Of a DNA stretch of 33,970 nt, positions 8,079 through 24,652 are shown piece after piece (position 1 is the stretch's first letter; each line of letters begins with the position of its first letter). A program made the position numbers and the translations under genes. Source of the DNA: a virus; the UHGV virus genome UHGV-0040082; one strand, written 5' to 3'. The notes under the pieces are model-generated. The model was given only the letters and a program-made list of their open reading frames with translations, searched no databases and was not told where the DNA came from.

Positions 8079-8551
8079 ACGTTGATACGCCAGCACAAGG
8101 ACTTAGCCTATTGACCGCGCAGGATCAGGAGTTCAAGAAGGCTTTTTTAAATACACCTTTGCGCTTACGAATTGCCGGAAAAGATTATGACGAAAAGACC
8201 GCGCCCGCAGCGGTTAACAGTAAATACCCTGACGGAACAACCATCATTATTGCCCCAGTGGTTGAAGGTGGTATTGCGGGGATTGGTGTTGTGGGTTGGA
8301 TCTTGATTGGTGTTTCAGTGGTTAGCGTTGCGTTCTCGATCTTTATGTCACGCAACATGAAGATAAAAACATCAGCAGAAAGCGCACAAGATAACACCAT
8401 AACGAACAACACCTACACCAGCATTGAAAACAAGGTGGGACAGGGCAGGCCAGTGCCAATCCTGTTGGGTGAAATGAAAATAGGTTCAAACGTCGGATCG
8501 TTAGGCATAGACACAAGCAACAACAAAGACGCCTTAGACGTTGTAAGTTAA
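8021..8551 (+). CDS. I: Tail assembly protein I (lambda gpI-like)
   Basis: 176 aa; hydrophobic Gly/Ile/Val-rich centre and LLGEMKIGS motif resembling lambda gpI (YGEMRVGS); position between K and J. Confidence 0.8.
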   Translation: MLKFRFTGNLRRYYGKVCLNVDTPAQGLSLLTAQDQEFKKAFLNTPLRLRIAGKDYDEKTAPAAVNSKYPDGTTIIIAPVVEGGIAGIGVVGWILIGVSVVSVAFSIFMSRNMKIKTSAESAQDNTITNNTYTSIENKVGQGRPVPILLGEMKIGSNVGSLGIDTSNNKDALDVVS

Positions 8552-8565
8552 CAGGAGAAAAAGCC

Positions 8566-11500
8566 ATGAGTAGCGGCGGCGGCAAAGCCAAAACACCAAC
8601 ACTATTGAACGATAACCTGTATCACAAACAGTTTTATCGTGTTTTAGATATTCTCAGCGAAGGGCCGATATACGGTCCGGTAAACCAGAAAGCGCCACTG
8701 AATGACGTGATGCTTAATGACACACCTGTTACTGACGCAAACGGGAATACATCAATCCCCGGGATTAGTGTAGCCTGGCGCAACGGCACGGCTGACCAGT
8801 CGCCGATTAATGGTTTTAATGCCATTGAGTCAACCGTTATTGTCAACGCAAAGGTAACTCACGACACGCCAATAATCAGGACTGTTTCAGATCCAAACGT
8901 TACCCGCGTCAGGTTAAATCTTGGTGTTGACGCTCTCGTCCAGTCAGATGAAAAGGGCAATCAATACAATACATCCGTCATGTTGATGGTTGATGTTAAA
9001 CCGTCATCTTCTTCTACGTGGTCGCTGATTAAAGATATACACATTGGTCCCGGCAAACAAAGCGGTGAGTATCTGGAAGCCCACATCATTAAAGCACCGG
9101 ATGAAAAACCGTTTGATATTCGCGTTCGTCGCGTGACAGCAGACAGCCACGGCGATCTATTGCGGAACGATACGCGGTGGAGCAGTTACAGCGAAATAAT
9201 TGACGATAACCTGTCTTATCCCCATACCGCTGTAGCTGGCGCGGTAATTGACCACGATCAATATACTGATACGCCTACACGTACCTATCACCTTCGCGGC
9301 CTGATTGTTGATGTTCCTGATAACTACAACACAGAAACGCGCGCGTATTCTGGTTTATGGCTTGGCGGATTCAAAAAAGCGTACACCAATAACCCTGCGT
9401 GGATTTTCCGGTATCTGGTTAAAAACGAGCGCTTCGGGCTTGCTAAACATGCTGGTTACATTGATGTTGATGATGGCGCTTTGTACGTGCTCTCCCAATA
9501 CTGCGATCAGTTGGTTGATGATGGCTATGGTGGCCTTGAACCTCGCATGACGCTTAACGCTTACATTACGGAGCAAATGAGCGCCCGCGACCTACTGGAT
9601 AACATTGCAGGTATGTTCCGTGGTATCGCGTTATGGGACGGGCAACGCCTTACCGTGATGATTGATGCACCACAGGATCCAATTGCCACCATCACAAACG
9701 CAAACGTCGTTGATGGCGCGTTTACTCGCTCAAGTCTTCCGCTTGCAGAGTGTTACAACGCCGTGATCGTATCATGGACTGACCCGGAAAACGGCTGGGA
9801 GCAATCAAAAGAATACGTGGCAGATGATGAACTAATCGCCCGCGATGGTTATAACGAAACCACGTTGGAGGCGTTCGGGTGCACGTCACGCGGGCAAGCG
9901 TACCGCGCTGGTAAATGGCTGATAGAAACAGCAAAACGCGAGCCGTCTAAATTCACGTTTAAAATGGCCCGTGACGCAATTCACTTCACCCCTGGTGATA
10001 TTATCGAGATACTCGACAATAACCGCGCTGGCGCTCGTTTAGGCGGTCGCATCGTGGCAAACAACGGCAGGGTTATCACTGTCGATAAGGTTGATTCTGA
10101 ATATATCGCCCCCGGCGACACCATTAGCCTGCTTGATAGTGACGGCAAATTTAAAAAACACCAGATCACCGGAGTTAGCGGAAACAAAATTACCCTTGCA
10201 TCTGCCCCGGCATGGATTCGTAACGGTACTGTGTTTGCCGTGTCAACTAACGCAGCAAAACCCGTATTGTGTCGAATCGTCAGCGTGGCGGAAACTGAAA
10301 ATAACAGCGTGTACACCATAGAGGCTGCACAGCATGATCCGCACAAACAGGCTGTAGTAGATAATGGCGCAATCTTTGAGGTCAACAACGATACGCTTAA
10401 TCACTTCCGCGTGCCAAACATTGAAAACCTGAAGGTGTTAAACATTGGATCTGAAACAGTTCAATGCCGCGCAACATGGGAAACACTGACGACAACTCAT
10501 CGCCTGACCTTTGAAATCCGCGTATACAATTCAGCGGGGGCCGTAGTTAAAAGCTACGAAACTACTAATTACAGTTATGATTTTTATGGCATTGATGCGG
10601 GAACCTACTCATTAGGCATCCGTGGCAGAAATGACACGGGCATGAAGGGTGCTGAAAGCATTGTGGATCTGGTTATTGGTGCACCAGCGGCCCCGGTAGG
10701 AGTTAACTGGGTTCCCGGTGTATTTCAGGCTACAGTTTACCCGATCAGCAGAACAACGCTTACCACTGACACCAGTTATGAGTTTTATTACTCAGGTGAA
10801 AAACAGATCACCGATCCGGCATCAGTAACCACTAAGGCACAATATACCGGGCGTGGTCATCAGTGGACTTTTGGCGGCATGAACACGGGGCACACCTATT
10901 ACGTTTATGTGCGCACACGCAATGCTTTTGGCGTGTCTGACTTTGTGGAGGCATCAGGTAAGCCGACAGAGAATTTTGATGAAATCAGCGATTACGTCAC
11001 CAAAGACGTGATGAACTCAGAACAGTTCAAGGAAATGATTGGTGACATCAAAGATCTTGGTGATCGCACGGATGTTATTGAAAATGCCACAAATGAACTA
11101 AAAGCAGCTACCGACAACCTCAAAACTGCAACTGATAATCTGACCAACATAACTGACGATTTAAGAACTGAAACCGACAACCTGACTAACATAACCGAAG
11201 ATTTAAGAAATGATACTGACAACCTGATTACAGAAACAGGATCAATAAAAGCTGATACAGATACGCTAAAAAAAGAAACAGAAGATCTTTATAAAAAAGT
11301 TAAGGAAAACGCCGATGATATTGGTCAGCATGAGTCAAGAATTGATTCATTAGAAGTGTCCAGCGAAAAAGTTGGCAGCGAACTGGCGCAAGCAAAAGCA
11401 AGCCTGCAAAACGCGTCATTGGCGCTTATCAACAACTCGCTTGCACAGACAAACACGCGCGTTACCCTTACCGCCCAGTACAAAAAAGGCAGAACGGAAA

Positions 11501-14115
11501 CGAAAGCGGAAATTGACCGTATTGACAACGTTATCGCTGAAGAGAAAAAAGCAACGGCTGAATCACTGAAAACCATCACGGCAGAAATGAACACGATGGA
11601 TTCCAACCTTAAAGGTCAGATCTCCAGTGTGGAACGCGCAGTGGCTGACGAGGCTAGTGCCCGCGCTGAAGCTATTAACGGTGTGAACGCCTCAATAAGC
11701 AATCTCGACAAGAAAACGGATGCCAGCGTCAATAGGCTTGATCAGGCTATTGCAGATGAAACGAACGCCCGCACACAGGCGGTCAGTGACGTTAACGCAA
11801 GTATCTCGGTACTTGATAAGAAAACTGACGCCAGCGTTAAACGCCTGGATCAGGCAATCGCTGACGAAACCAGCGCAAGAACCGAAGCTATCAGTGGCGT
11901 GAACGCATCAATTTCAACGCTTGATAGCAAAGTGGAAAGCAATATAACGCGCATAGATAAAGCTATTGCAGATGAAACGCAGGCGCGTACAGACGCAATA
12001 AGCGGCGTCAAAGCGAGCATTAACACACTTGAAGGCAACACCAATTCAGAAGTTAAACGTCTGGATCAGGCAATCGCTGACGAGGCCAGTGCCCGCACAC
12101 AGGCGGTAAGTGATGTAAAAGCATCAGTAAGCAACCTTGAAAGCAAAACTGACGCCAGCGTTAAACGCCTGGATAAAGCTATTGCAGACGAAACAAGCGC
12201 ACGCAGCGAAGCTATTAGTGGGGTAAATGCCTCAGTATCAGCGCTCGACAAGAAAACCGATTCAAGCATAAGCCGCCTTGATAAAGCCATTGCGGATGAA
12301 ACAAGCGCGAGAACCGAAGCCATCAACGGTGTGAATGCGTCAATTTCCACACTCGACGGCAAGGTTACAAGTAACGTTAGCCGCCTTGATAAAGCAATAT
12401 CAGACGAAACGAAGGCAAGAAGCGACGCAATAACAGAGGTTAAAGCAGACTTAACAACGCTTGAGAACAGCACAAACGCCAGCGTTAAGCGTCTTGATCA
12501 GGCAATTGCCGATGAATCAAGCGCCCGCGCACAAGCAATATCAGGACTCAGCGCAAATCTTGGCACTGTTGAAAATAATGTTGGCAAAAACAGCGACGAA
12601 ATAAATCAGGCAAAAGCAAGCCTGCAAAACGCATCTATTGCACTTATCAATAACTCAATCGCTCAAACCAACACGCGTGTTACTCTTTCAGCCCAATACA
12701 AGAAAGGAATCAGAGAAACCAACGCGAAAATTGACCGCATTGACAATGTTGTAGCAGAAGAGAAAAAAGCAACGGCAGAAGCCATTAGCGGGGTAAGCGC
12801 ATCGATCACCGATCTTGATAAGAAAACTGAAGCAAGCGTTAACCGCCTTGACAGGGCGATTGCAGACGAAACAAGCGCCCGCAGCGAGGCTATCAGCGGC
12901 GTGAATGCGTCAATTTCCACGCTTGATAGTAATGTGAAAAGCGACATTACCAGGATGGACAAAGCCATCGCCGATGAAACAAAAGCACGCGCAGACGCAA
13001 TAAGCGGCCTTAGCGCATCGCTTACCAGTACGATCAACTCAAAAGTGTCTGAAGTGTCAACGGCACTTTCTACGCATGAGGAATCAAGTGCAGAAAAATT
13101 TAGCCAGATCTCGGCGTCTTTCGAATCAGTAAACTCAAGCATTACAGAATGGTCGCAGGCAATGGCTACAGCAGATAAGGCGTTGTCAACGAAAATTGAT
13201 CAGCTAACAGTGACTGTTAACGGGAATAAGACGGCAATAGAGACGACATCTAAAGCGTTAACCGACTTTAAGGGTAATGTTGATGCGTCATATTCAATTA
13301 AGCTCGCCACCGACAACAACGGCATGAAATACGCAACAGGTATGTCACTTGGCCTTACTGGTGATGGGACCAACTTTCAGTCGCAGTGTATTTTCCTTGT
13401 TGACCGCTTCGTGTTAATGACTGACGCTAACGGTTCGTATCAAACGCCTTTCTATGTAACTAATGGCGCAATGTATGTAAGAGAAGCGTTTATTAAAGAC
13501 GGCACTATCAACTCCGCCAAAATAGCTGATCTAATACAGTCAGTTAATTATAGCTGGGAAGGCGCGACAGGATGGGCGATAAATAAAAACGGTAACGCAG
13601 TATTTAACCAAGTAACCGTAAGGGGGACGGTATACGCTAATGCTGGTGTGTTTAACGGTACTGTTTACGCAACTGGCGGTAAATTTACTGGAGCAGTTGA
13701 AGCCACAAGTTTTGTTGGTGACGTAGCAAGTATGTCAGTGATAAACGAGAAAGTATTTCCGTCAATGAGGGGGAGCGGCAGCAGGGAAACTTCAAAAACT
13801 TATCTTGATTCAAGTTCATCAAGTTTATCAAAAACCGTTTACGTTATGATTCCGTATGATTTGTCATACTATACACATAGTGAATCTTCTCGTATCAGCG
13901 TAACTATAAACATAAACGGACACGCAAAAACAATTAATATAGAAAGGCCAGCATCAGGTCCATCAATGTCATCTGTCGCGGTGCACTGTGTACATGACCT
14001 AACATACCCAACAATTACAGTCAAGGTTACGGAAAACTTTACCAATACATCCGCTGCATCAATAAGAAAACCAGGCTTGATACTTATAACAAGAAGTTCA
14101 GGAACATGGGTATAA
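8566..14115 (+). CDS. J: Host specificity protein J (central tail fiber / tip attachment), with a large repeat insert
   Basis: 1849 aa. N-terminal ~800 aa and C-terminal ~330 aa follow recalled lambda J (e.g. ILSEGPI.GP, YHLRG.I..VP.NYN, AFGCTSRGQA.RAG.WL, HFTPGD.IEI.D, AAQH.P.K.A.VDNGA). Residues ~830-1510 are a repeat-rich insert not in lambda J. Confidence 0.9.
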   Translation: MSSGGGKAKTPTLLNDNLYHKQFYRVLDILSEGPIYGPVNQKAPLNDVMLNDTPVTDANGNTSIPGISVAWRNGTADQSPINGFNAIESTVIVNAKVTHDTPIIRTVSDPNVTRVRLNLGVDALVQSDEKGNQYNTSVMLMVDVKPSSSSTWSLIKDIHIGPGKQSGEYLEAHIIKAPDEKPFDIRVRRVTADSHGDLLRNDTRWSSYSEIIDDNLSYPHTAVAGAVIDHDQYTDTPTRTYHLRGLIVDVPDNYNTETRAYSGLWLGGFKKAYTNNPAWIFRYLVKNERFGLAKHAGYIDVDDGALYVLSQYCDQLVDDGYGGLEPRMTLNAYITEQMSARDLLDNIAGMFRGIALWDGQRLTVMIDAPQDPIATITNANVVDGAFTRSSLPLAECYNAVIVSWTDPENGWEQSKEYVADDELIARDGYNETTLEAFGCTSRGQAYRAGKWLIETAKREPSKFTFKMARDAIHFTPGDIIEILDNNRAGARLGGRIVANNGRVITVDKVDSEYIAPGDTISLLDSDGKFKKHQITGVSGNKITLASAPAWIRNGTVFAVSTNAAKPVLCRIVSVAETENNSVYTIEAAQHDPHKQAVVDNGAIFEVNNDTLNHFRVPNIENLKVLNIGSETVQCRATWETLTTTHRLTFEIRVYNSAGAVVKSYETTNYSYDFYGIDAGTYSLGIRGRNDTGMKGAESIVDLVIGAPAAPVGVNWVPGVFQATVYPISRTTLTTDTSYEFYYSGEKQITDPASVTTKAQYTGRGHQWTFGGMNTGHTYYVYVRTRNAFGVSDFVEASGKPTENFDEISDYVTKDVMNSEQFKEMIGDIKDLGDRTDVIENATNELKAATDNLKTATDNLTNITDDLRTETDNLTNITEDLRNDTDNLITETGSIKADTDTLKKETEDLYKKVKENADDIGQHESRIDSLEVSSEKVGSELAQAKASLQNASLALINNSLAQTNTRVTLTAQYKKGRTETKAEIDRIDNVIAEEKKATAESLKTITAEMNTMDSNLKGQISSVERAVADEASARAEAINGVNASISNLDKKTDASVNRLDQAIADETNARTQAVSDVNASISVLDKKTDASVKRLDQAIADETSARTEAISGVNASISTLDSKVESNITRIDKAIADETQARTDAISGVKASINTLEGNTNSEVKRLDQAIADEASARTQAVSDVKASVSNLESKTDASVKRLDKAIADETSARSEAISGVNASVSALDKKTDSSISRLDKAIADETSARTEAINGVNASISTLDGKVTSNVSRLDKAISDETKARSDAITEVKADLTTLENSTNASVKRLDQAIADESSARAQAISGLSANLGTVENNVGKNSDEINQAKASLQNASIALINNSIAQTNTRVTLSAQYKKGIRETNAKIDRIDNVVAEEKKATAEAISGVSASITDLDKKTEASVNRLDRAIADETSARSEAISGVNASISTLDSNVKSDITRMDKAIADETKARADAISGLSASLTSTINSKVSEVSTALSTHEESSAEKFSQISASFESVNSSITEWSQAMATADKALSTKIDQLTVTVNGNKTAIETTSKALTDFKGNVDASYSIKLATDNNGMKYATGMSLGLTGDGTNFQSQCIFLVDRFVLMTDANGSYQTPFYVTNGAMYVREAFIKDGTINSAKIADLIQSVNYSWEGATGWAINKNGNAVFNQVTVRGTVYANAGVFNGTVYATGGKFTGAVEATSFVGDVASMSVINEKVFPSMRGSGSRETSKTYLDSSSSSLSKTVYVMIPYDLSYYTHSESSRISVTININGHAKTINIERPASGPSMSSVAVHCVHDLTYPTITVKVTENFTNTSAASIRKPGLILITRSSGTWV
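11629..13080 (+). repeat. Tandem 108-bp (36-aa) coding repeats inside J, about 11 copies in two arrays
   Basis: Repeating unit RLDQAIADETSARTEAISGVNASISTLDSK.....VK visible in protein and DNA; the segment AKASLQNASLALINNSLAQTNTRVTLTAQYKKG...IDRIDNV.AEEKKATAE occurs twice (DNA ~11386 and ~12604). Confidence 0.8.
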
Positions 14116-14121
14116 AAATAA

Positions 14122-14149
14122 CCCCGCTTCGCGCGGGGTTTTCTTTTAG
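14122..14149. terminator. Rho-independent terminator after J (bidirectional)
   Basis: Hairpin ccccgc-ttcgc-gcgggg followed by ttttctttt; A-run on the other side. Confidence 0.7.
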
Positions 14150-14385
14150 TAGTTAGCTACACAGTTAGAAGGGCTACCGATGCGGCGCATGTTGTGATCG
14201 AGTTCATGACACCATTGACCAGTATAAGGCAGTTTTTCAGTGTCATAGACAAGATGACCTTCACCATCATAGACAACATCTTGTGGAATTACTCCGCTAT
14301 TCGGCAGGTTATGCAATGCGGCCTCTTTGTCAACAGCGCAACCAGTAAGAGCTACGGCCGCAGAGAATAAAACCACTTTGAACAT
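14146..14385 (-). CDS. Small lipoprotein (candidate Cor/Llp-type superinfection exclusion protein)
   Basis: 79 aa; N-terminus MFKVVLFSAAVALTGC = signal peptide plus lipobox; small mature part with two Cys; opposite strand between J and the side tail fiber. Confidence 0.55.
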   Translation of the reverse strand: MFKVVLFSAAVALTGCAVDKEAALHNLPNSGVIPQDVVYDGEGHLVYDTEKLPYTGQWCHELDHNMRRIGSPSNCVANY

Positions 14386-14572
14386 GTTTTTTCATTTTTT
14401 AATCCTCGTTCTTGTTAGCTCGTCCGGTTCATCCGGTGTCTTGAATATCCGACAAAACAACATTTCGTATATTGATATAAATCAACAAATACATTTTGTG
14501 TAAGCAGAAAATGCAACACAGATCACAAAATGGTAGAATTATTCCGTTAATTAACAAAATGGAGTCATCGAG

Positions 14573-17500
14573 ATGATTTACACAACTGGAACAGTTGCCA
14601 TTAACGGCAATACTGTTAAAGGCACGGGAACAAACTTTTCCGCGCCGCTTTCTCTTATTCGTGTAGGTTGCACGCTCATTGCTGTTGGCAATCCTGTGCA
14701 GATCTTTACCATCACGGAAATTAAAAGCGGCACTGAACTGTTAGTGACGCCAGCAGCTAACCCCGCAATCCCTGCCGGGACAAAATTTAGCATCCTGCTA
14801 TCTGATTCGATCTCAGTTGATGGGCTTGCTCAGGACGTAGCTGAAACCCTGCGTTACTACCAGAGCAAAGAAACAGAAATCGCCTCCGCCGTAGAGTGGT
14901 GGAATGAGATCGGCGGCGAAGGTCAGTTGGATCAGCTTCTTACCAACATTCGCGCAGAAACAGCCAAATCAACCGCTAACGCTCAAAAAACAGAAACTGA
15001 CAAAAACGCAGCAGAAGCGTCAAAAACAGCGGCTGCAAAATCCGCCACGGCAGCGAAAACATCAGAAACCAACGCTAAGGCAAGCGAGACGGCAGCGAAA
15101 ACAAGCGAAACCAAAGCCAAAACATCAGAGGACAGGGCGCAAGAATATCTGAATCAAATGGGAAGGCTTACCAGCCCAATGGTCCAATGTGCTTGGCCTG
15201 TTGAAACTAGCGGTAATGGCGCTTACGTTAAGATTGCTAAACTTAGCGATCCAAAGTCATCAGACTGCCACTTAACGCTAATGGTTACAAATGGCGGTGG
15301 CTACGGTTTAAGTTACGGGAATATTGACTTTATAGAGATCTCCGCTCGAGGTCTTAACGACACAGGCGAAGTAACCAGTGAAAATATATCTAAATTTTTA
15401 AGTATTCGCCGACTCGGTTCACCAAACCTTCCCAATAATAGTCAAATGTGTTACGGCCTGGTTAAAGGTGACGGCTATATCGAGGTCTGGTGCTACCAGC
15501 GATCTTATATTAAAAACACAAAAGTAGCGGTGCTGGCGCAGACTGGCAACACGGAATTATACATTCCTGAAGGATTTGTTAAGCAAGCCGACGCACCCGC
15601 TGGATATATTGAAAGCCCAGCAGCAAGGATTTACGACCAGGTAAACAAACCCAGCAAGGCAGATCTGGGCCTTTCTAATGCTATGCTTACAGGCGCTTTC
15701 GGTCTTGGCGGTAGCGGGATATCAACAACCGGCAAGATGAGCGATGTAGAGATCTTAAAAGCTCTGCGTGACAAAGGTGGTCATTTCTGGCGCAGTGATA
15801 GGCCGACCGGAAGTACGGCGACCATTTATAGCCGCGGTTCTGGTATATTCTCGCGGTGCGGCGATACGTGGTCGGCGATCAATATCGACTACGGAACAGG
15901 TAAAGTCAAGGTTTACGCTGGTAACGATGGTGGACTTAATAGTGGTAATTTTTCCGTCAATGAGCTATACGGAACCAAAAATAAACCGTCGAAATCGGAC
16001 GTTGGACTTGACAACGTAACCAACGATGCACAGGTTAAAAAATCCGGCGACACCATGACTGGCGACCTGTCGATCACTAAAGCAACACCTTCGATATACA
16101 TTCGTTCAAAAAGTGGAACCGCCCATGTATGGTTCCAGAATGAGGATCAATCGGAACGCGGTGTTATCTGGGCGCCTACCAATTCCGAAGGACTTGGCGA
16201 AGTTCACATCAGGGCCAAAAATACAAAAGGTGAATCAACTGGTGAACTCATTGTTCGTCACGACGGGGAAATTAGGGTTCCCAGTCTCACAGCGAGTAAA
16301 AAAATAAAAGGCGCAACCGCAGATTTTACAAACACATCAGAAACCACGACGGAGAACACGTTAAAAATCAGCGGTAAGCAGCATACACCGTTAGTTTTAA
16401 CGCGTACCGGGTATTCTGAAAACCTGTCCATTGGCTTCAAGGTTGATAACGTTGTTCAAAAATACCTCGGTATTAATAGCGGTGGGGATCTGTGTTTTGG
16501 TGATTATGCCGATCACAAAACAAACAGCAAAGTTATCACGCAAGCAGTGCTTGATAGCGGTGTGACGGTAGGCGGTCAGACAACCTTTTCTAAACTTGCC
16601 ACATTTAGCAAAGGCATGACCGGGCCTATCGTACCGGAAGGGCTTGACTCACGTACCATTGATCTTAATGACCTAATCATCAATGGTTCAGATATAGGAT
16701 CGGTCAAATACTATCAATGTACATCTTCCAGTGGTGGAGCGAACATTACCAACAAGCCTGACGGCGTAGGCGGTAACTTCTTGCTGCGTGTAGAGTCAGT
16801 CCGTAAAGTTAGTGATACTGACTATATAAGTATGCAAACACTGACTAGTGGCGACAAAGAACGCGTATTTGTTCGTTTTAATACTAATAGTAAGTGGACA
16901 GCATGGTGTGAACCTGTTGTATCGGGATGGAAGCAGGATGTGTCTGTTAAGACGCTAACAGCAGCCGAAGACGTCATCCTTAAAAACAGTGATACTGGTC
17001 CGCGCCTTATTTTAAGGAACTCTAACACATCGGCGCAGTCGTGGAGTGTAAGGGTGTGGGGTGAAAGCGGAAGGGAAAGCGTTTTTGAGGTTGGTAACAG
17101 CAATAGTTACATGTTCTATGCTCAGGAAGATGCAGCAGGAAACAAGAAATTTGACTTTAACGGTGATATTTCATGTAAGACGCTATATCAAACTTCTGAC
17201 CAGAGCCTTAAAGACAACATTAAGGTTATAGGTGACGCCACCGAATCCATCCGCAAAATGAATGGGTACACCTACACGTTTAAGGACGATGGCCTGCCTT
17301 ACGCTGGCGTTATTGCACAGGAAGTAATGGACGCGCTGCCTGAAGCGATAGCGTTTACCACTCTTTGCGGCAAGGAGCTACAAGGACCAACAACTGACGG
17401 CAACATCTTACGCGAGGAAATGAAGTGCCTCAGCGTTGACTATGCGGCGGTGACTGGTTTACTTGTCCAGGTGGCACGCGAAACGGATAACCGCGTCACC

Positions 17501-17608
17501 GAACTGGAAGAGGAGAACGCAAGCCTGAAAGCTAACATTGCCGCAATGGATGAGCGGATAGCAAAACTTGAAGCGCTTATCAGTCAGTTGACCGGAAGCG
17601 AAGAATAA
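14573..17608 (+). CDS. Side tail fiber with C-terminal intramolecular chaperone (peptidase S74-like) domain
   Basis: 1011 aa; Ala/Thr/Lys-rich heptad-like N-terminal repeats; C-terminus has SDQSLKDNI...GVIAQEV...P.A motif typical of self-cleaving fiber chaperone domains, then a coiled-coil tail; RBS GGAG. Confidence 0.8.
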   Translation: MIYTTGTVAINGNTVKGTGTNFSAPLSLIRVGCTLIAVGNPVQIFTITEIKSGTELLVTPAANPAIPAGTKFSILLSDSISVDGLAQDVAETLRYYQSKETEIASAVEWWNEIGGEGQLDQLLTNIRAETAKSTANAQKTETDKNAAEASKTAAAKSATAAKTSETNAKASETAAKTSETKAKTSEDRAQEYLNQMGRLTSPMVQCAWPVETSGNGAYVKIAKLSDPKSSDCHLTLMVTNGGGYGLSYGNIDFIEISARGLNDTGEVTSENISKFLSIRRLGSPNLPNNSQMCYGLVKGDGYIEVWCYQRSYIKNTKVAVLAQTGNTELYIPEGFVKQADAPAGYIESPAARIYDQVNKPSKADLGLSNAMLTGAFGLGGSGISTTGKMSDVEILKALRDKGGHFWRSDRPTGSTATIYSRGSGIFSRCGDTWSAINIDYGTGKVKVYAGNDGGLNSGNFSVNELYGTKNKPSKSDVGLDNVTNDAQVKKSGDTMTGDLSITKATPSIYIRSKSGTAHVWFQNEDQSERGVIWAPTNSEGLGEVHIRAKNTKGESTGELIVRHDGEIRVPSLTASKKIKGATADFTNTSETTTENTLKISGKQHTPLVLTRTGYSENLSIGFKVDNVVQKYLGINSGGDLCFGDYADHKTNSKVITQAVLDSGVTVGGQTTFSKLATFSKGMTGPIVPEGLDSRTIDLNDLIINGSDIGSVKYYQCTSSSGGANITNKPDGVGGNFLLRVESVRKVSDTDYISMQTLTSGDKERVFVRFNTNSKWTAWCEPVVSGWKQDVSVKTLTAAEDVILKNSDTGPRLILRNSNTSAQSWSVRVWGESGRESVFEVGNSNSYMFYAQEDAAGNKKFDFNGDISCKTLYQTSDQSLKDNIKVIGDATESIRKMNGYTYTFKDDGLPYAGVIAQEVMDALPEAIAFTTLCGKELQGPTTDGNILREEMKCLSVDYAAVTGLLVQVARETDNRVTELEEENASLKANIAAMDERIAKLEALISQLTGSEE

Positions 17609-17638
17609 GAGGTGATGTGCGAAGAACATCGCCGCGCG

Positions 17639-17666
17639 AAACGAGGCTAACGCCTCGTTTCTTTTT
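17639..17666 (+). terminator. Rho-independent terminator after the side tail fiber gene
   Basis: 9-bp stem aaacgaggc/gcctcgttt, loop taac, followed by cttttt. Confidence 0.75.
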
Positions 17667-17812
17667 ATGTACCAAATAGTGACCAAATACCCAAAACCAA
17701 AAACAAAAGCACTGTAACATACTGTTTTATAAATTATTATTCACAAAGCTAACCATTCCAAGCATACGGCAGATGGCAGGGCGACCAAGAAGAATTGTTG
17801 TCGTTTTATCCA

Positions 17813-19106: not shown

Positions 19107-19667
19107 TCAAAACAATTGCAATTGAAAACGTTCGCTGACTTCTTTCATTAACTGCTTAACATGTTTCTTATCACGCTTTCGCTGAGTTAACAGGCGGCTT
19201 CCAACCTTGCCGACCGTTTCGCTATCAGTAGCAAAACTGCTTACTGCATTCATTACCTGTTCACAGCTTGCGCCGCAACAAATAAGACCCTTAACGTGTT
19301 CAGCCATGTCATCATGTGTTTTAGGTTTTTCTCCGTAATAGCCATTATGACGAATAGATGGCAATACTTCCTCAAACACCCAATCCTGGAAGCGTTCGGC
19401 TGATTCAAGTTTTGAATGCATAATCAAGCGGAAAACATCCGGTTCGTAAATCAGGCCAACTCCTTTCGGCTTGAATCCGAATCCTAATTCTCGCGTTTTG
19501 CGAGAATCAAGTTTAATCAATGATTTACAGTGTTTTTTAATAGCATCATGCTCGTTCTTATAACCTAACGCGCGAGCAACATTAACAGCAACAAAAGCTG
19601 GCTTATCTGCATAAATAACCGTTTGCACTTGTTTATCATCAAACGAGAATTTAACAACCTTATTCAT
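19107..19667 (-). CDS. Bro-N domain protein (antirepressor-like)
   Basis: N-terminal Bro-N-like segment (AVARALGY..EHDAIKKHCKSLIKLDS ... SKLESAERFQDWVFEEVLPSIR); paralog of the ORF at 23783-24520. Confidence 0.7.
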   Translation of the reverse strand: MNKVVKFSFDDKQVQTVIYADKPAFVAVNVARALGYKNEHDAIKKHCKSLIKLDSRKTRELGFGFKPKGVGLIYEPDVFRLIMHSKLESAERFQDWVFEEVLPSIRHNGYYGEKPKTHDDMAEHVKGLICCGASCEQVMNAVSSFATDSETVGKVGSRLLTQRKRDKKHVKQLMKEVSERFQLQLF

Positions 19668-22124: not shown

Positions 22125-22631
22125 TCAGGGTAAAGAAATACCGTGATTGCTATGAAAGTTATACATTCTTTCAGCTTCTTTTCTTGCTTTTACGGCATCA
22201 TCAAATGAGTCACCGTAATAAACGTATATTGTTTTCTTTTTCCCATCAGACCCCCTTATACCTATTTGCGCGCGCCATTTATTAGTTTTCTTGTTCCATG
22301 TAACGCCAACGCATCCGCTGGTGTTACTTGATGGTATTGTTTTATTTCTGTTGTTCTCCCTCCTTGTAACCATCCTTAAGTTTTCGATTCTATCATCGCC
22401 AGGCACATGATTTATGTGATCTATTTCCATTCCATCAGGGATAGGGCCGTTAAACATTTCCCAAATAATGCGGTGACGCCATGTACAACACACACCATTA
22501 ACGCGGATAGTCCAATATCCGCTATGATGCCTACTTCCAGCAACGTCACCGGCTTTTGTTTTGTTATTTGCGCGGTTACAAGACCAATATAGAACACCGT
22601 CCCTATAGGTAAATAAATCATCCCACATCAT
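22125..22631 (-). CDS. HNH homing endonuclease with AP2-like domain (second copy)
   Basis: EIDHINHVPGDDRIENLR motif followed by GCVGVTW...W.A.I motif; start overlaps the stop of the upstream gene; paralog of the ORF at 3976-4500. Confidence 0.75.
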   Translation of the reverse strand: MMWDDLFTYRDGVLYWSCNRANNKTKAGDVAGSRHHSGYWTIRVNGVCCTWRHRIIWEMFNGPIPDGMEIDHINHVPGDDRIENLRMVTRRENNRNKTIPSSNTSGCVGVTWNKKTNKWRAQIGIRGSDGKKKTIYVYYGDSFDDAVKARKEAERMYNFHSNHGISLP

Positions 22632-23748
22632 GACACACCACCATTTCAGGCCTATATACAAAGCGACCAATTTCGCCATAATCAGGACTGTAAATGATAA
22701 CCGCCGCGCAACGTTGCGATCTCCATCCTCCATTAGTTGAATAAGCGTCTTTGCCCGCTAACGTGCCGTGGTGTTCAACTATGCCTATAGATGATTCTGT
22801 TACTGATTTATGGTGCAAATGTCCGACATGGACGTAAACATATTTCGACTTGCCGAAATCCTCGCGCCAGTCAGCTACGCAAGCAGCCAATAAATTTTCC
22901 GGCTTTTTAATAGTGTGCCCGTGGTGGTAAGCAAGAAATGTTTTACCGTACTGCGTGTGGTGGACGATAGCAGGTGACACATCAACCGTCACGCGCGGTT
23001 CATCTTCGTAAAAAGCCGCCAGCGCCGCACGTAGCCAAATCATGCCTGACTGATCGTGATTGCCTGACAACACCTGGATTTCAACATCCTTATGATTTAA
23101 CAACATTTTACCTACCGCCCGCCGGACAGACCGGATCGCCACATAAACAAGTTTTGCGTAGCGACTATCTTGATCAAGAATGTGCCCGCTTATTGGCGTC
23201 ACCGGGACCATACCGTCAGAATGAAGCAGATCGCCACCGAGGAGCAGTACGGCTTTTTCAGACATCGGAGCAGCGCCAACAGCGTAGTCAAAGAAGTCAT
23301 TCAACACGCGCTCAGCGATCCCAGTGTCGTAGCTCTCGCCGCATTCAGCTTTATGAGCAAGCGCCCCGATATGCAGATCAAACACCGGATAAAGGGCCAG
23401 GCTTTTTTGAAAATCAATTTCAGGCACTGGCACAGCCTCCGCGCGTGGTATTTCATCCGTGAAAGCGTCGCGGGCCGCTTCCATTAACTGTTCCATTTCG
23501 TCGCGGTCACGGGCTGTTTTAATCCAGCGCATGATCACATTGCCATCCTTATCGACGAGCAATGACTCAGCATTGACGCCAAAACCCGGTGCGCGACGCG
23601 TGGATATTAAACCGCGTTTCGCCAGTTTTGCGCCTAGCCGCTCGACGTTGCGTTTTGACATGCCATATTTTTCAGCGATCTGCTTGTACGTTAAACCGTT
23701 GTTATATTCAGCGATCAATTGCTCATCGCTGATTTTTCTTTGTGACAT
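22618..23748 (-). CDS. HTH domain fused to calcineurin-like metallophosphoesterase
   Basis: N-terminal HTH (LTYKQIAEKYGMSKRNVERL); then phosphoesterase motifs in order: DLHIG, GGDLLHSDG, GNHD, YHHGH, GHLHH. Confidence 0.7.
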   Translation of the reverse strand: MSQRKISDEQLIAEYNNGLTYKQIAEKYGMSKRNVERLGAKLAKRGLISTRRAPGFGVNAESLLVDKDGNVIMRWIKTARDRDEMEQLMEAARDAFTDEIPRAEAVPVPEIDFQKSLALYPVFDLHIGALAHKAECGESYDTGIAERVLNDFFDYAVGAAPMSEKAVLLLGGDLLHSDGMVPVTPISGHILDQDSRYAKLVYVAIRSVRRAVGKMLLNHKDVEIQVLSGNHDQSGMIWLRAALAAFYEDEPRVTVDVSPAIVHHTQYGKTFLAYHHGHTIKKPENLLAACVADWREDFGKSKYVYVHVGHLHHKSVTESSIGIVEHHGTLAGKDAYSTNGGWRSQRCAAVIIYSPDYGEIGRFVYRPEMVVCHDVG

Positions 23749-23782: not shown

Positions 23783-24520
23783 TTAGTTGCAAGTTAAAAG
23801 CTCAGTGATCCATACTTGTCCTTTAGCAGTGAATACAGCCTGCTCATATCCATCGTGAGTTACCCTCATTTCACCGTAGCCCTCATCAATAAACCACTGA
23901 CTGAATACACGGCGGCGACAGCGAAGATCATAAACACCAACCGCCGAAAGTTTTCTGTTTAATTTTACGGCTGACATTCCCAGCGGTTTAGCTACCTCTG
24001 AAGCCGTTCGGTGCATATCGTTTTTGACTATCGCGTCACATACAGCCGCTTTCGGAGCCAGCACTTTATTTTCAAGCGCAAGACGTTCATTTTCTTGCTT
24101 AACTAACAATTTTTGCTCGTATTCATTAGCCCACGCCCGCGCCGCTTCCGCAGGGTTAGAGAAGTCAGGCAAAGCAGGTTTGCAACCGTAACACCCATTT
24201 TCACGCAAAGCCGGAAGAACCTCCTCGCACACCCAATCCTGGAAGCGCTCGGCTGATTCTAATTTTGATCTCATAACAAGACGGTATATATCTGCCTCTC
24301 GAATTATAATTATGCCTTTTGGTCTGAACCCAAAACCTAATTCCGTTGTTTTAACGGAATCAAGTTTAATCAATGACTTACAATGTTTTTTAATGGCCTG
24401 ATGCTCGTCGTTGTACCCCAGCGCACGGGCCACATCAACCGCAACAAAAGCAGGTTTACCGTCATAAATTACAGCAGTGATTTTATTGTCATCAAAATTA
24501 AAACACATCAACTCAGACAT
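23783..24520 (-). CDS. Bro-N / KilA-C-type antirepressor-like protein
   Basis: Start at MSELM with GGAGA RBS; N-terminal Bro-N segment near-identical in places to the ORF at 19107-19667; longer C-terminal domain. Confidence 0.7.
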   Translation of the reverse strand: MSELMCFNFDDNKITAVIYDGKPAFVAVDVARALGYNDEHQAIKKHCKSLIKLDSVKTTELGFGFRPKGIIIIREADIYRLVMRSKLESAERFQDWVCEEVLPALRENGCYGCKPALPDFSNPAEAARAWANEYEQKLLVKQENERLALENKVLAPKAAVCDAIVKNDMHRTASEVAKPLGMSAVKLNRKLSAVGVYDLRCRRRVFSQWFIDEGYGEMRVTHDGYEQAVFTAKGQVWITELLTCN

Positions 24521-24652
24521 TGTAATTTCTCCGTAAAACGCTCTACAACGCAAAAATCCCACCGCGTAACCCGTTTGCACAGGTTGCAGTGTCTTATTGC
24601 GCCAGAGGCGCTATCAGGTGGCTAATTTTCGATTTACAGACTGGTATGTAGG

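Follow-up and report, generated by a model that had tools for sequence, protein, structure and literature searches.

A tail fibre precursor with a predicted self-cleaving S74-type chaperone domain in a phage genome of the mEp021 group

The tail fibre precursor gene

The gene at positions 14573–17608 of UHGV virus genome UHGV-0040082 (33,970 nucleotides; this whole stretch is referred to below as the window) raises the question of whether its product is a tail fibre that carries its own folding helper and, if so, of what modules the fibre is made. The analysis described here indicates that the gene very likely encodes the precursor of a homotrimeric lateral tail fibre, made by a temperate siphophage of the mEp021 group and equipped with a self-cleaving chaperone of the S74 type. 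The last 137 residues, by analogy with characterised relatives, very probably act as a folding helper that cuts itself off after the fibre has assembled. An initial annotation, made from the sequence alone, had called the product a side tail fibre with a C-terminal domain of this kind. Residue numbers are those of the 1011-amino acid (aa) protein, and the features that bear on this question are:

14573..17608 (+): tail fibre precursor gene, 1011 aa, 108.4 kDa (from the open reading frame (ORF) list and translation)
17195..17605 (+): intramolecular chaperone (Peptidase S74 / ICA) domain, PF13884, residues 875–1011, 14.9 kDa
17192..17212 (+): predicted autocleavage site and dyad, Thr874|Ser875 (Ser codon 17195–17197) and Lys880 (codon 17210–17212)
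17453..17596 (+): terminal heptad coiled coil, residues 961–1008

The ORF was exactly as first annotated, with an ATG at 14573 and a stop codon at 17606–17608. Its product was assigned to the PHROG tail-fibre families phrog_24369 (E 1.7e-276) and phrog_6578 (E 2e-153), in agreement with the fibre identity first proposed. The predicted mature chain comprises residues 1–874 (93.5 kDa, computed), and the predicted released fragment residues 875–1011 (137 aa, 14.9 kDa, computed). Opposite-strand ORFs of 60–93 aa are also present within the gene, in a region that is well-supported coding sequence.

The C-terminal chaperone domain and its predicted cleavage site

The initial annotation had placed the chaperone in the C-terminal ~137 aa, from about Ser875 (DNA ~17195), on the basis of an SDxxLK…GVIAQEV signature, and each of these points was borne out. 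The domain starts at Ser875, encoded from position 17195, and is 137 aa long; SDQSLK occupies residues 875–880 (DNA 17195–17212), and GVIAQEV begins at residue 912. The Pfam Peptidase_S74 profile (PF13884), the comparison suggested at that stage, matched residues 875–925 with an E value of 2.1e-12, far beyond chance, and with 47.6 bits against a curated cut-off of 22. T5 pb1, included as a positive control for the PF13884 scan, scored 35.9 bits. Profile position 1 fell on Ser1264 in the control and on Ser875 in the window fibre.

On alignment, T874-S875-x4-K880 matched both T1263-S1264…K1269 of T5 pb1 and T910-S911-x4-K916 of the K1F endosialidase, which is followed by FGVIAQQ and then by a terminal coiled coil. 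In T5 pb1 it is the Thr1263–Ser1264 bond that is cleaved, Lys1269 has been proposed to activate the serine, and an S1264A mutation was made to block autoproteolysis (PMC4690869). An exhaustive homology search with residues 860–1011 returned 6470 cluster representatives at E <= 0.001, and conservation was counted in an alignment of 131 diverse representatives to which T5 and K1F had been added. The column of Ser875 contains Ser in 129 of the 131 and Cys in the remaining two, Asp876 is conserved in 130, and Lys880 and Gly912 are conserved in all 131; the GVIAQ motif is near-invariant. The domain is nearly always C-terminal, with <=30 residues following the matched stretch in 119 of 150 representatives. 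A profile made from 39 diverse family members, with T5 and K1F left out, was used to search the PDB and matched the following structures:

6F45: phage S16 gp37, E 4e-23
7DC3: MyRF ICA domain, E 7e-16
8HQZ: an L-shaped tail fibre, E 1.5e-7
3GUD: GA-1 neck-appendage protein, E 1.3e-4

On these alignments and profiles, membership of the fibre C-terminus in the S74 family can be regarded as firm.

Residues 961–1008 carry L, I, V or M at 10 of 14 a/d positions, a level reached by 14 of 20000 shuffles, and phmmer matched them to designed coiled coils and to the P22 gp26 needle. The short coiled coil that had been described after the S74 domain is therefore present, but it does not appear to be a separate appendage. 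As K1F endoNF and most family members end in a coiled coil too, it looks like a part of the chaperone domain. Among E. coli prophage homologues of residues 961–1011 the coiled-coil tail is mosaic, with two alternative endings (…NRVTELEEENASLKANIAAMDERIAKLEALISQLTGSEE and …DRVTALEEENTTLRENLATADTRISTLENQVSELVALVRQLTGSEH), and some homologues have extra heptad repeats there.

Modular architecture upstream of the chaperone

Judged from its alignments, the fibre is a mosaic in which an anchor, a heptad repeat, a pb1-like centre with a knob-like domain, and a gp34-like stalk precede the chaperone:

14573..14896 (+): N-terminal anchor domain, residues 1 to ~108
14945..15160 (+): Ala/Thr/Lys/Ser/Glu-rich heptad repeat region, residues 125–196
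15002..16966 (+): central module like T5 pb1 (L-shaped tail fibre), residues 144–798
16625..16927 (+): pyocin-knob-like globular domain, residues ~685–785, within the pb1-like module
16967..17194 (+): short beta-rich stalk, residues 799–874, predicted C-terminal end of the mature fibre

The anchor presumably attaches the fibre to the tail. Residues 1–108 are 87% identical to residues 1–108 of mEp044 gp112, anchor and neck together (1–195) are 80% identical to residues 1–195 of mEp554 gp113, and the N-terminus is 66% identical to residues 1–183 of mEp021 gp82. Matches to the anchor in tblastn searches came from T1-like phages, Webervirus and some lambdoid fibres. Residues 3–237 also matched the N-terminus of the solved 'Depolymerase' chains 7VYV/7LZJ (phmmer, E ~1e-37), which we take to be tailspikes of Klebsiella Webervirus phages.

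The Ala/Thr/Lys-rich, heptad-like repeats noted initially in the N-terminal region proved to have a true seven-residue periodicity. In residues 125–196 the identity at lag 7 is 0.43, compared with ~0.1 at other lags, and was reached by none of 20000 shuffles (maximum 0.32). AAKTSET occurs at residues 160 and 174, and Tandem Repeats Finder detected a 21-bp period at 15065–15124. The region aligns with equivalent repeats in T5 pb1 and in the 7VYV chain, and probably forms a trimeric coiled-coil neck.

The central module (655 aa) shares 56% identity with residues 142–806 of T5 pb1 (BLASTP) and 61% with the side tail fibre (Stf) of phage Ayreon, and is absent from the sister phages. Many of its homologues carry the lambda Stf N-terminal domain PF08400, an arrangement that supports a role in a lateral fibre. 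The domain at residues ~685–785 has a globular knob fold like that of R-type pyocin fibres.

In the stalk, residues 819–867 were matched by phmmer to the T4 gp34 C-terminal structures 4UXE/5NXF, which were also the top Foldseek matches of this region (28% identity over 116 columns). The stalk-plus-chaperone cassette (788–1011) is 56–61% identical in mEp554, mEp044 and Ayreon. The DNA match to mEp044 starts at gene nucleotide 2623, which is codon 875, and the protein match from about residue 778. No catalytic domain was found in the fibre by Pfam or fold search.

Genetic context and sister phages

Over the tail genes, the window shares 85–90% DNA identity with MagusPhagus, mEp554, mEp044 and mEp021, and it is a member of the mEp021 (mEpimmI) group, whose coliphages are temperate and non-lambdoid (PMC11893012). 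The gene order runs from lambda-type tip genes (K, I, J), with a J product of 1849 aa, through a lipoprotein gene on the opposite strand to the fibre gene. Past the fibre gene the genes run in the opposite direction; their products are NinB, Ant-like proteins, a DnaB-like helicase, an HNH endonuclease and an exonuclease. No gene for a Tfa-type assembly chaperone was found 3' of the fibre gene, which is followed by a terminator and then by the opposite-strand replication and recombination genes. This fits a fibre that carries its own chaperone. The signals that flank the gene are:

14560..14564 (+): ribosome-binding site TGGAG, 8 nt 5' of the fibre ATG (read from the sequence)
17638..17661 (+): intrinsic terminator, 30 nt past the fibre stop codon, with a 10-bp stem (6 G-C pairs) and a T-run

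An identical TGGAG is annotated as the ribosome-binding site of the homologous mEp021 gene, gp82, and terminators are annotated at the corresponding place in mEp554 and mEp044. The terminator marks the end of the late (structural) operon, of which the fibre gene is the last gene.

In the sister phages the fibre locus in every case encodes a protein with the order anchor, variable region, S74 domain, and PF13884 was found at the C-terminus of each of the following:

mEp554_113: L005 1501–4026, 53.3 bits, annotated 'hypothetical protein'
mEp044_112: L006 2350–4914, 53.3 bits, annotated 'hypothetical protein'
mEp021_82 (gp82, a short homologue): L007 8030–9379, 38.5 bits, annotated 'putative tail tip protein'

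As these products share PF13884 and the anchor, a new annotation as tail fibres that carry their own intramolecular chaperone would suit all three. The existing annotation classes mEp021 gp82 as a tail structural protein, and a 'tail tip protein' is among the virion proteins detected by mass spectrometry in the mEp021 paper, an entry not confirmed as gp82.

Relationship to known fibres

The closest homologue is WP_237998197.1, encoded by a prophage of E. coli 2-331, which is 89% identical over its full length and has the same architecture. Its gene likewise comes after the same J gene and a small lipoprotein-like gene, with no further prophage gene ahead of the host gene ydaN. The PGAP name of this protein is 'pyocin knob domain-containing S74 family peptidase'. 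A scan of the window fibre against NCBIfam returned no families at E <= 0.01, so the name must have another source. The two proteins are only 56–80% identical in residues ~200–500 and 98–100% identical elsewhere, and this confinement of the divergence suggests recombinational exchange or diversification of the segment. Hundreds of E. coli prophage proteins share modules with the fibre, and work on coliphage collections regularly records fibres of the intramolecular-chaperone type (bioRxiv 10.1101/2024.09.12.612763).

The likeness to T5 pb1 extends beyond the central module, as both proteins end in PF13884 with a Thr-Ser…Lys site and have chaperones of similar length (137 aa in the window fibre, 133 aa in pb1). 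However, the N-termini are unlike, and the chaperones are too diverged for BLASTP. The distal part of pb1 (807–1263), with its crystallised O-antigen-binding domain, is absent from the window fibre and the 76-residue stalk stands in its place. In addition, T5 is virulent whereas the window phage is temperate. Orthology with full-length pb1 (LtfA) was thus not found, the N-terminus and the distal domain (970–1263) being unaligned and 4UW7, 4UW8 and 5AQ5 giving no matches. On this comparison, the window fibre is not an ortholog of pb1 but a chimera with a pb1-like module.

The K1F endosialidase, the founding member of MEROPS S74, shares the T-S-x4-K arrangement, a GVIAQ motif ~40 residues further on and the terminal coiled coil. 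Its passenger, however, is the enzymatic tailspike of a podophage, and the similarity is seen through profiles only. Stf of the lambdoid phage Ayreon and related E. coli prophage Stf proteins are 61% identical over the pb1-like module and the stalk-plus-chaperone cassette. The Ayreon gene lies downstream of J with no Tfa annotated nearby, but the protein differs in its N-terminal PF08400 and in ~240 extra residues between knob and stalk. PF08400 and a downstream Tfa gene, which characterise a lambda-type Stf, were not found for the window fibre, though its position past J does correspond. The fibre is thus not of the lambda Stf type either.

The N-terminal anchor type is shared with Webervirus fibres and depolymerases. 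The Webervirus (Klebsiella) 'cluster I' receptor-binding proteins, likewise from siphophages, have a C-terminal ICA and no depolymerase domain, appear self-cleaving and bind O-antigen (PMC13463945). They belong to phages of other hosts and are likened to the window fibre by their published description. For the pb1-like module itself, the Klebsiella matches were to large phages such as Miro (~40% identity) and not to Webervirus.

Proposed assembly and alternative interpretations

By analogy with the K1F endosialidase and T5 pb1, the three chaperone domains would associate first, via the terminal coiled coil and a helical core, and the chaperone trimer would then serve as a template on which the upstream trimeric beta-structure folds. 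With that fold correctly formed, Ser875, activated by Lys880, would cut the Thr874–Ser875 bond in each chain, and the 14.9 kDa fragment would leave an 874-residue fibre (93.5 kDa per chain) with its mature tip exposed. The built-in chaperone would in this way substitute for the separate Tfa-type protein needed by lambda-type fibres. In the mature fibre, the anchor would be docked on the tail tip near J and followed by the coiled-coil neck, a pb1-like shaft bearing several globular domains, and finally the knob and stalk. The fibre would make a reversible primary contact with a surface glycan and J would engage the terminal receptor. Comparison with T5 and related fibres makes lipopolysaccharide or O-antigen the most likely target of this reversible binding. 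In T5, only the cleaved form of pb1 inhibits phage adsorption by competition (PMC4690869).

Several observations weigh against this interpretation. Trimerisation, cleavage, a lateral position in the virion and glycan binding are all inferred from homology, and the O-antigen-binding region of T5 pb1 (970–1263) is precisely the part absent from the window fibre. BLASTP of the whole fibre against T5 pb1 did not align the chaperone domains, and a profile made from close relatives only gave a weak match to T5 pb1, at the correct serine, and no significant match to K1F. The AlphaFold2 monomer model has pLDDT < 50 at residues ~889–940 and does not back the characteristic chaperone fold of tentacle hairpins and a helical bundle, and a fold search with this low-confidence model returned no chaperone structure, leaving the sequence profiles as the support for that fold. 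Such low values might be expected of a domain that forms an intertwined trimer. Upstream residues that serve T5 as a folding sensor, Asp1239 and (from the adjacent chain) Arg1250, could not be matched to positions in the window fibre. All of 61 close relatives retain R834 and E839, although sequence does not suffice to equate these two residues with the T5 sensor.

None of the three competing interpretations considered has positive sequence support. In one, the S74-like domain folds the fibre yet stays attached or leaves late, so that virions would have a capped tip or retain all 1011 residues of the chain. The title of one paper on Alteromonas phages (PMC10579305) ascribes 'properties of transient chaperone caps' to tail fibres. 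An uncleaved T5 construct does form a stable trimer (PMC4690869), but the uncleaved form shows no inhibition of adsorption, and cleavage was proposed to unmask a binding site (PMC4690869). Moreover, Ser875, Asp876 and Lys880 are intact, in columns kept in at least 129 of the 131 diverse relatives, and Ser875 is preceded by Thr, as at the T5 and K1F scissile bonds. Retention of the chaperone is therefore improbable. A position in the tail tip or baseplate hub, rather than in a lateral fibre, would agree with the GenBank annotation of mEp021 gp82 as 'putative tail tip protein'. However, the J-type tip genes K, I and J are all present upstream, and the protein has the typical architecture of a fibre (anchor, coiled-coil neck, shaft, knob and chaperone). 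The central module also stands behind PF08400 in many prophages and in Ayreon, and T5 pb1 is itself a lateral fibre, making a tip location very improbable.

The 7VYV/7LZJ matches raised the possibility of an enzymatic tailspike, a depolymerase of capsule or O-antigen, rather than a non-enzymatic fibre. This reading was rejected since the similarity is confined to the N-terminal 237 residues, namely anchor and neck. The Pfam scan revealed no catalytic domain of the beta-helix, lyase or hydrolase type, and the fold search led to proteins of fibres, tailspikes and pyocin fibres, no catalytic domain being conspicuous among them, so a depolymerase is very improbable. A self-cleaving lateral fibre is thus the interpretation that we favour.

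Other features of the window

The J gene (central tail fibre; 8566–14115, +) is unusually long, at 1849 aa, and contains a coiled-coil-like insertion of 36-aa tandem repeats (~11124–12320; lag-36 identity 0.46). In the DNA, a 108-bp period was seen at 11812–12320 and a 42-bp repeat at 11124–11227. Repeats at J positions 950–1475 are described in the mEpimmI paper. The extreme C-terminus of J is 56–58% identical to those of mEp554 and mEp044, which use LamB, and past residue 1689 there is no alignment with J of mEp021, which uses OmpA.

The lipoprotein encoded at 14146–14385 (-), in the interval from J to the fibre gene, is 79 aa long (lipobox LTGC; phrog_12984) and 95% identical to mEp554_111. 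A type-C Lpp lipoprotein was assigned to mEp554 in the mEpimmI paper, where the mEp010 allele was tested for superinfection exclusion. We take mEp554_111 to be this type-C lipoprotein, on an inferred mapping of the gene numbers. A perfect 8-bp G+C-rich hairpin with T-runs on each side (14120–14140, both strands) separates the J stop codon from the lipoprotein gene end. It resembles an intrinsic terminator acting in both directions, in which case the fibre gene may need its own promoter. A sigma-70 promoter scan of the 187-bp gap 5' of the fibre gene flagged no site. An extended -10-like element, TGgTAGAAT, is present in this gap at 14531–14539 (+), ~34 nt 5' of the fibre ATG, and is a possible separate promoter of the fibre gene.

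Downstream, homology to the linear mEp554, mEp021 and mEp515 records ends at ~17756–17759, in an A/T-rich gap at ~17700–17812. In the E. coli 2-331 prophage, host DNA (ydaN, zntB and later ttcA) starts shortly past the fibre gene. Together, these boundaries make it likely that the gap holds, for phages of this group, either the attachment site or the conventional end of the genome. Further on, an HNH endonuclease ORF (22125–22733, -) overlaps the 3' end of a DNA-repair exonuclease ORF (22618–23748, -) by ~115 nt and could be a homing endonuclease that has inserted there. In mEp021, conversely, an HNH gene separates tail genes I and J; the window has none at that place, with I ending at 8551 and J starting at 8566. 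The early region also includes two Ant-like anti-repressor genes (phrog_130), at 19107–19667 (-; E 8e-38) and 23783–24580 (-; E 2e-55).

Host range and significance

The receptor-binding region had been placed initially upstream of the cleavage site. A position upstream of the cut is in keeping with the present analysis, but the stretch just beside the cut is not an obvious host-range determinant, because only ~75 conserved residues separate the knob from the cleavage site. The most variable part between close relatives is instead residues ~200–500, and this pattern gives a hint of a variable module remote from the point of cleavage. It is conceivable, though doubtful, that the fibre is a dual-site adhesin in which residues ~200–500 form a laterally exposed, fast-exchanged receptor-binding module acting together with the distal knob and stalk. 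Were this so, host range, in contrast to T5, would be determined at a distance from the tip whose folding the chaperone templates. If true, the proximal two-thirds of a virulent T5-type fibre would have been transferred into a temperate phage of the mEp021 group.

A self-cleaving chaperone on a fibre is an ordinary feature, annotated likewise in close relatives, and involves no new biological principle. For host-range engineering, Thr874|Ser875 and the module boundaries (anchor from 1 to ~195, variable centre, cassette from ~788) would mark swap points, and a separate assembly chaperone would not need to be co-expressed. The practical value is mainly in annotation, as the corresponding genes of mEp554, mEp044 and mEp021 can be read as encoding S74-chaperone fibres that share one type of N-terminal anchor.

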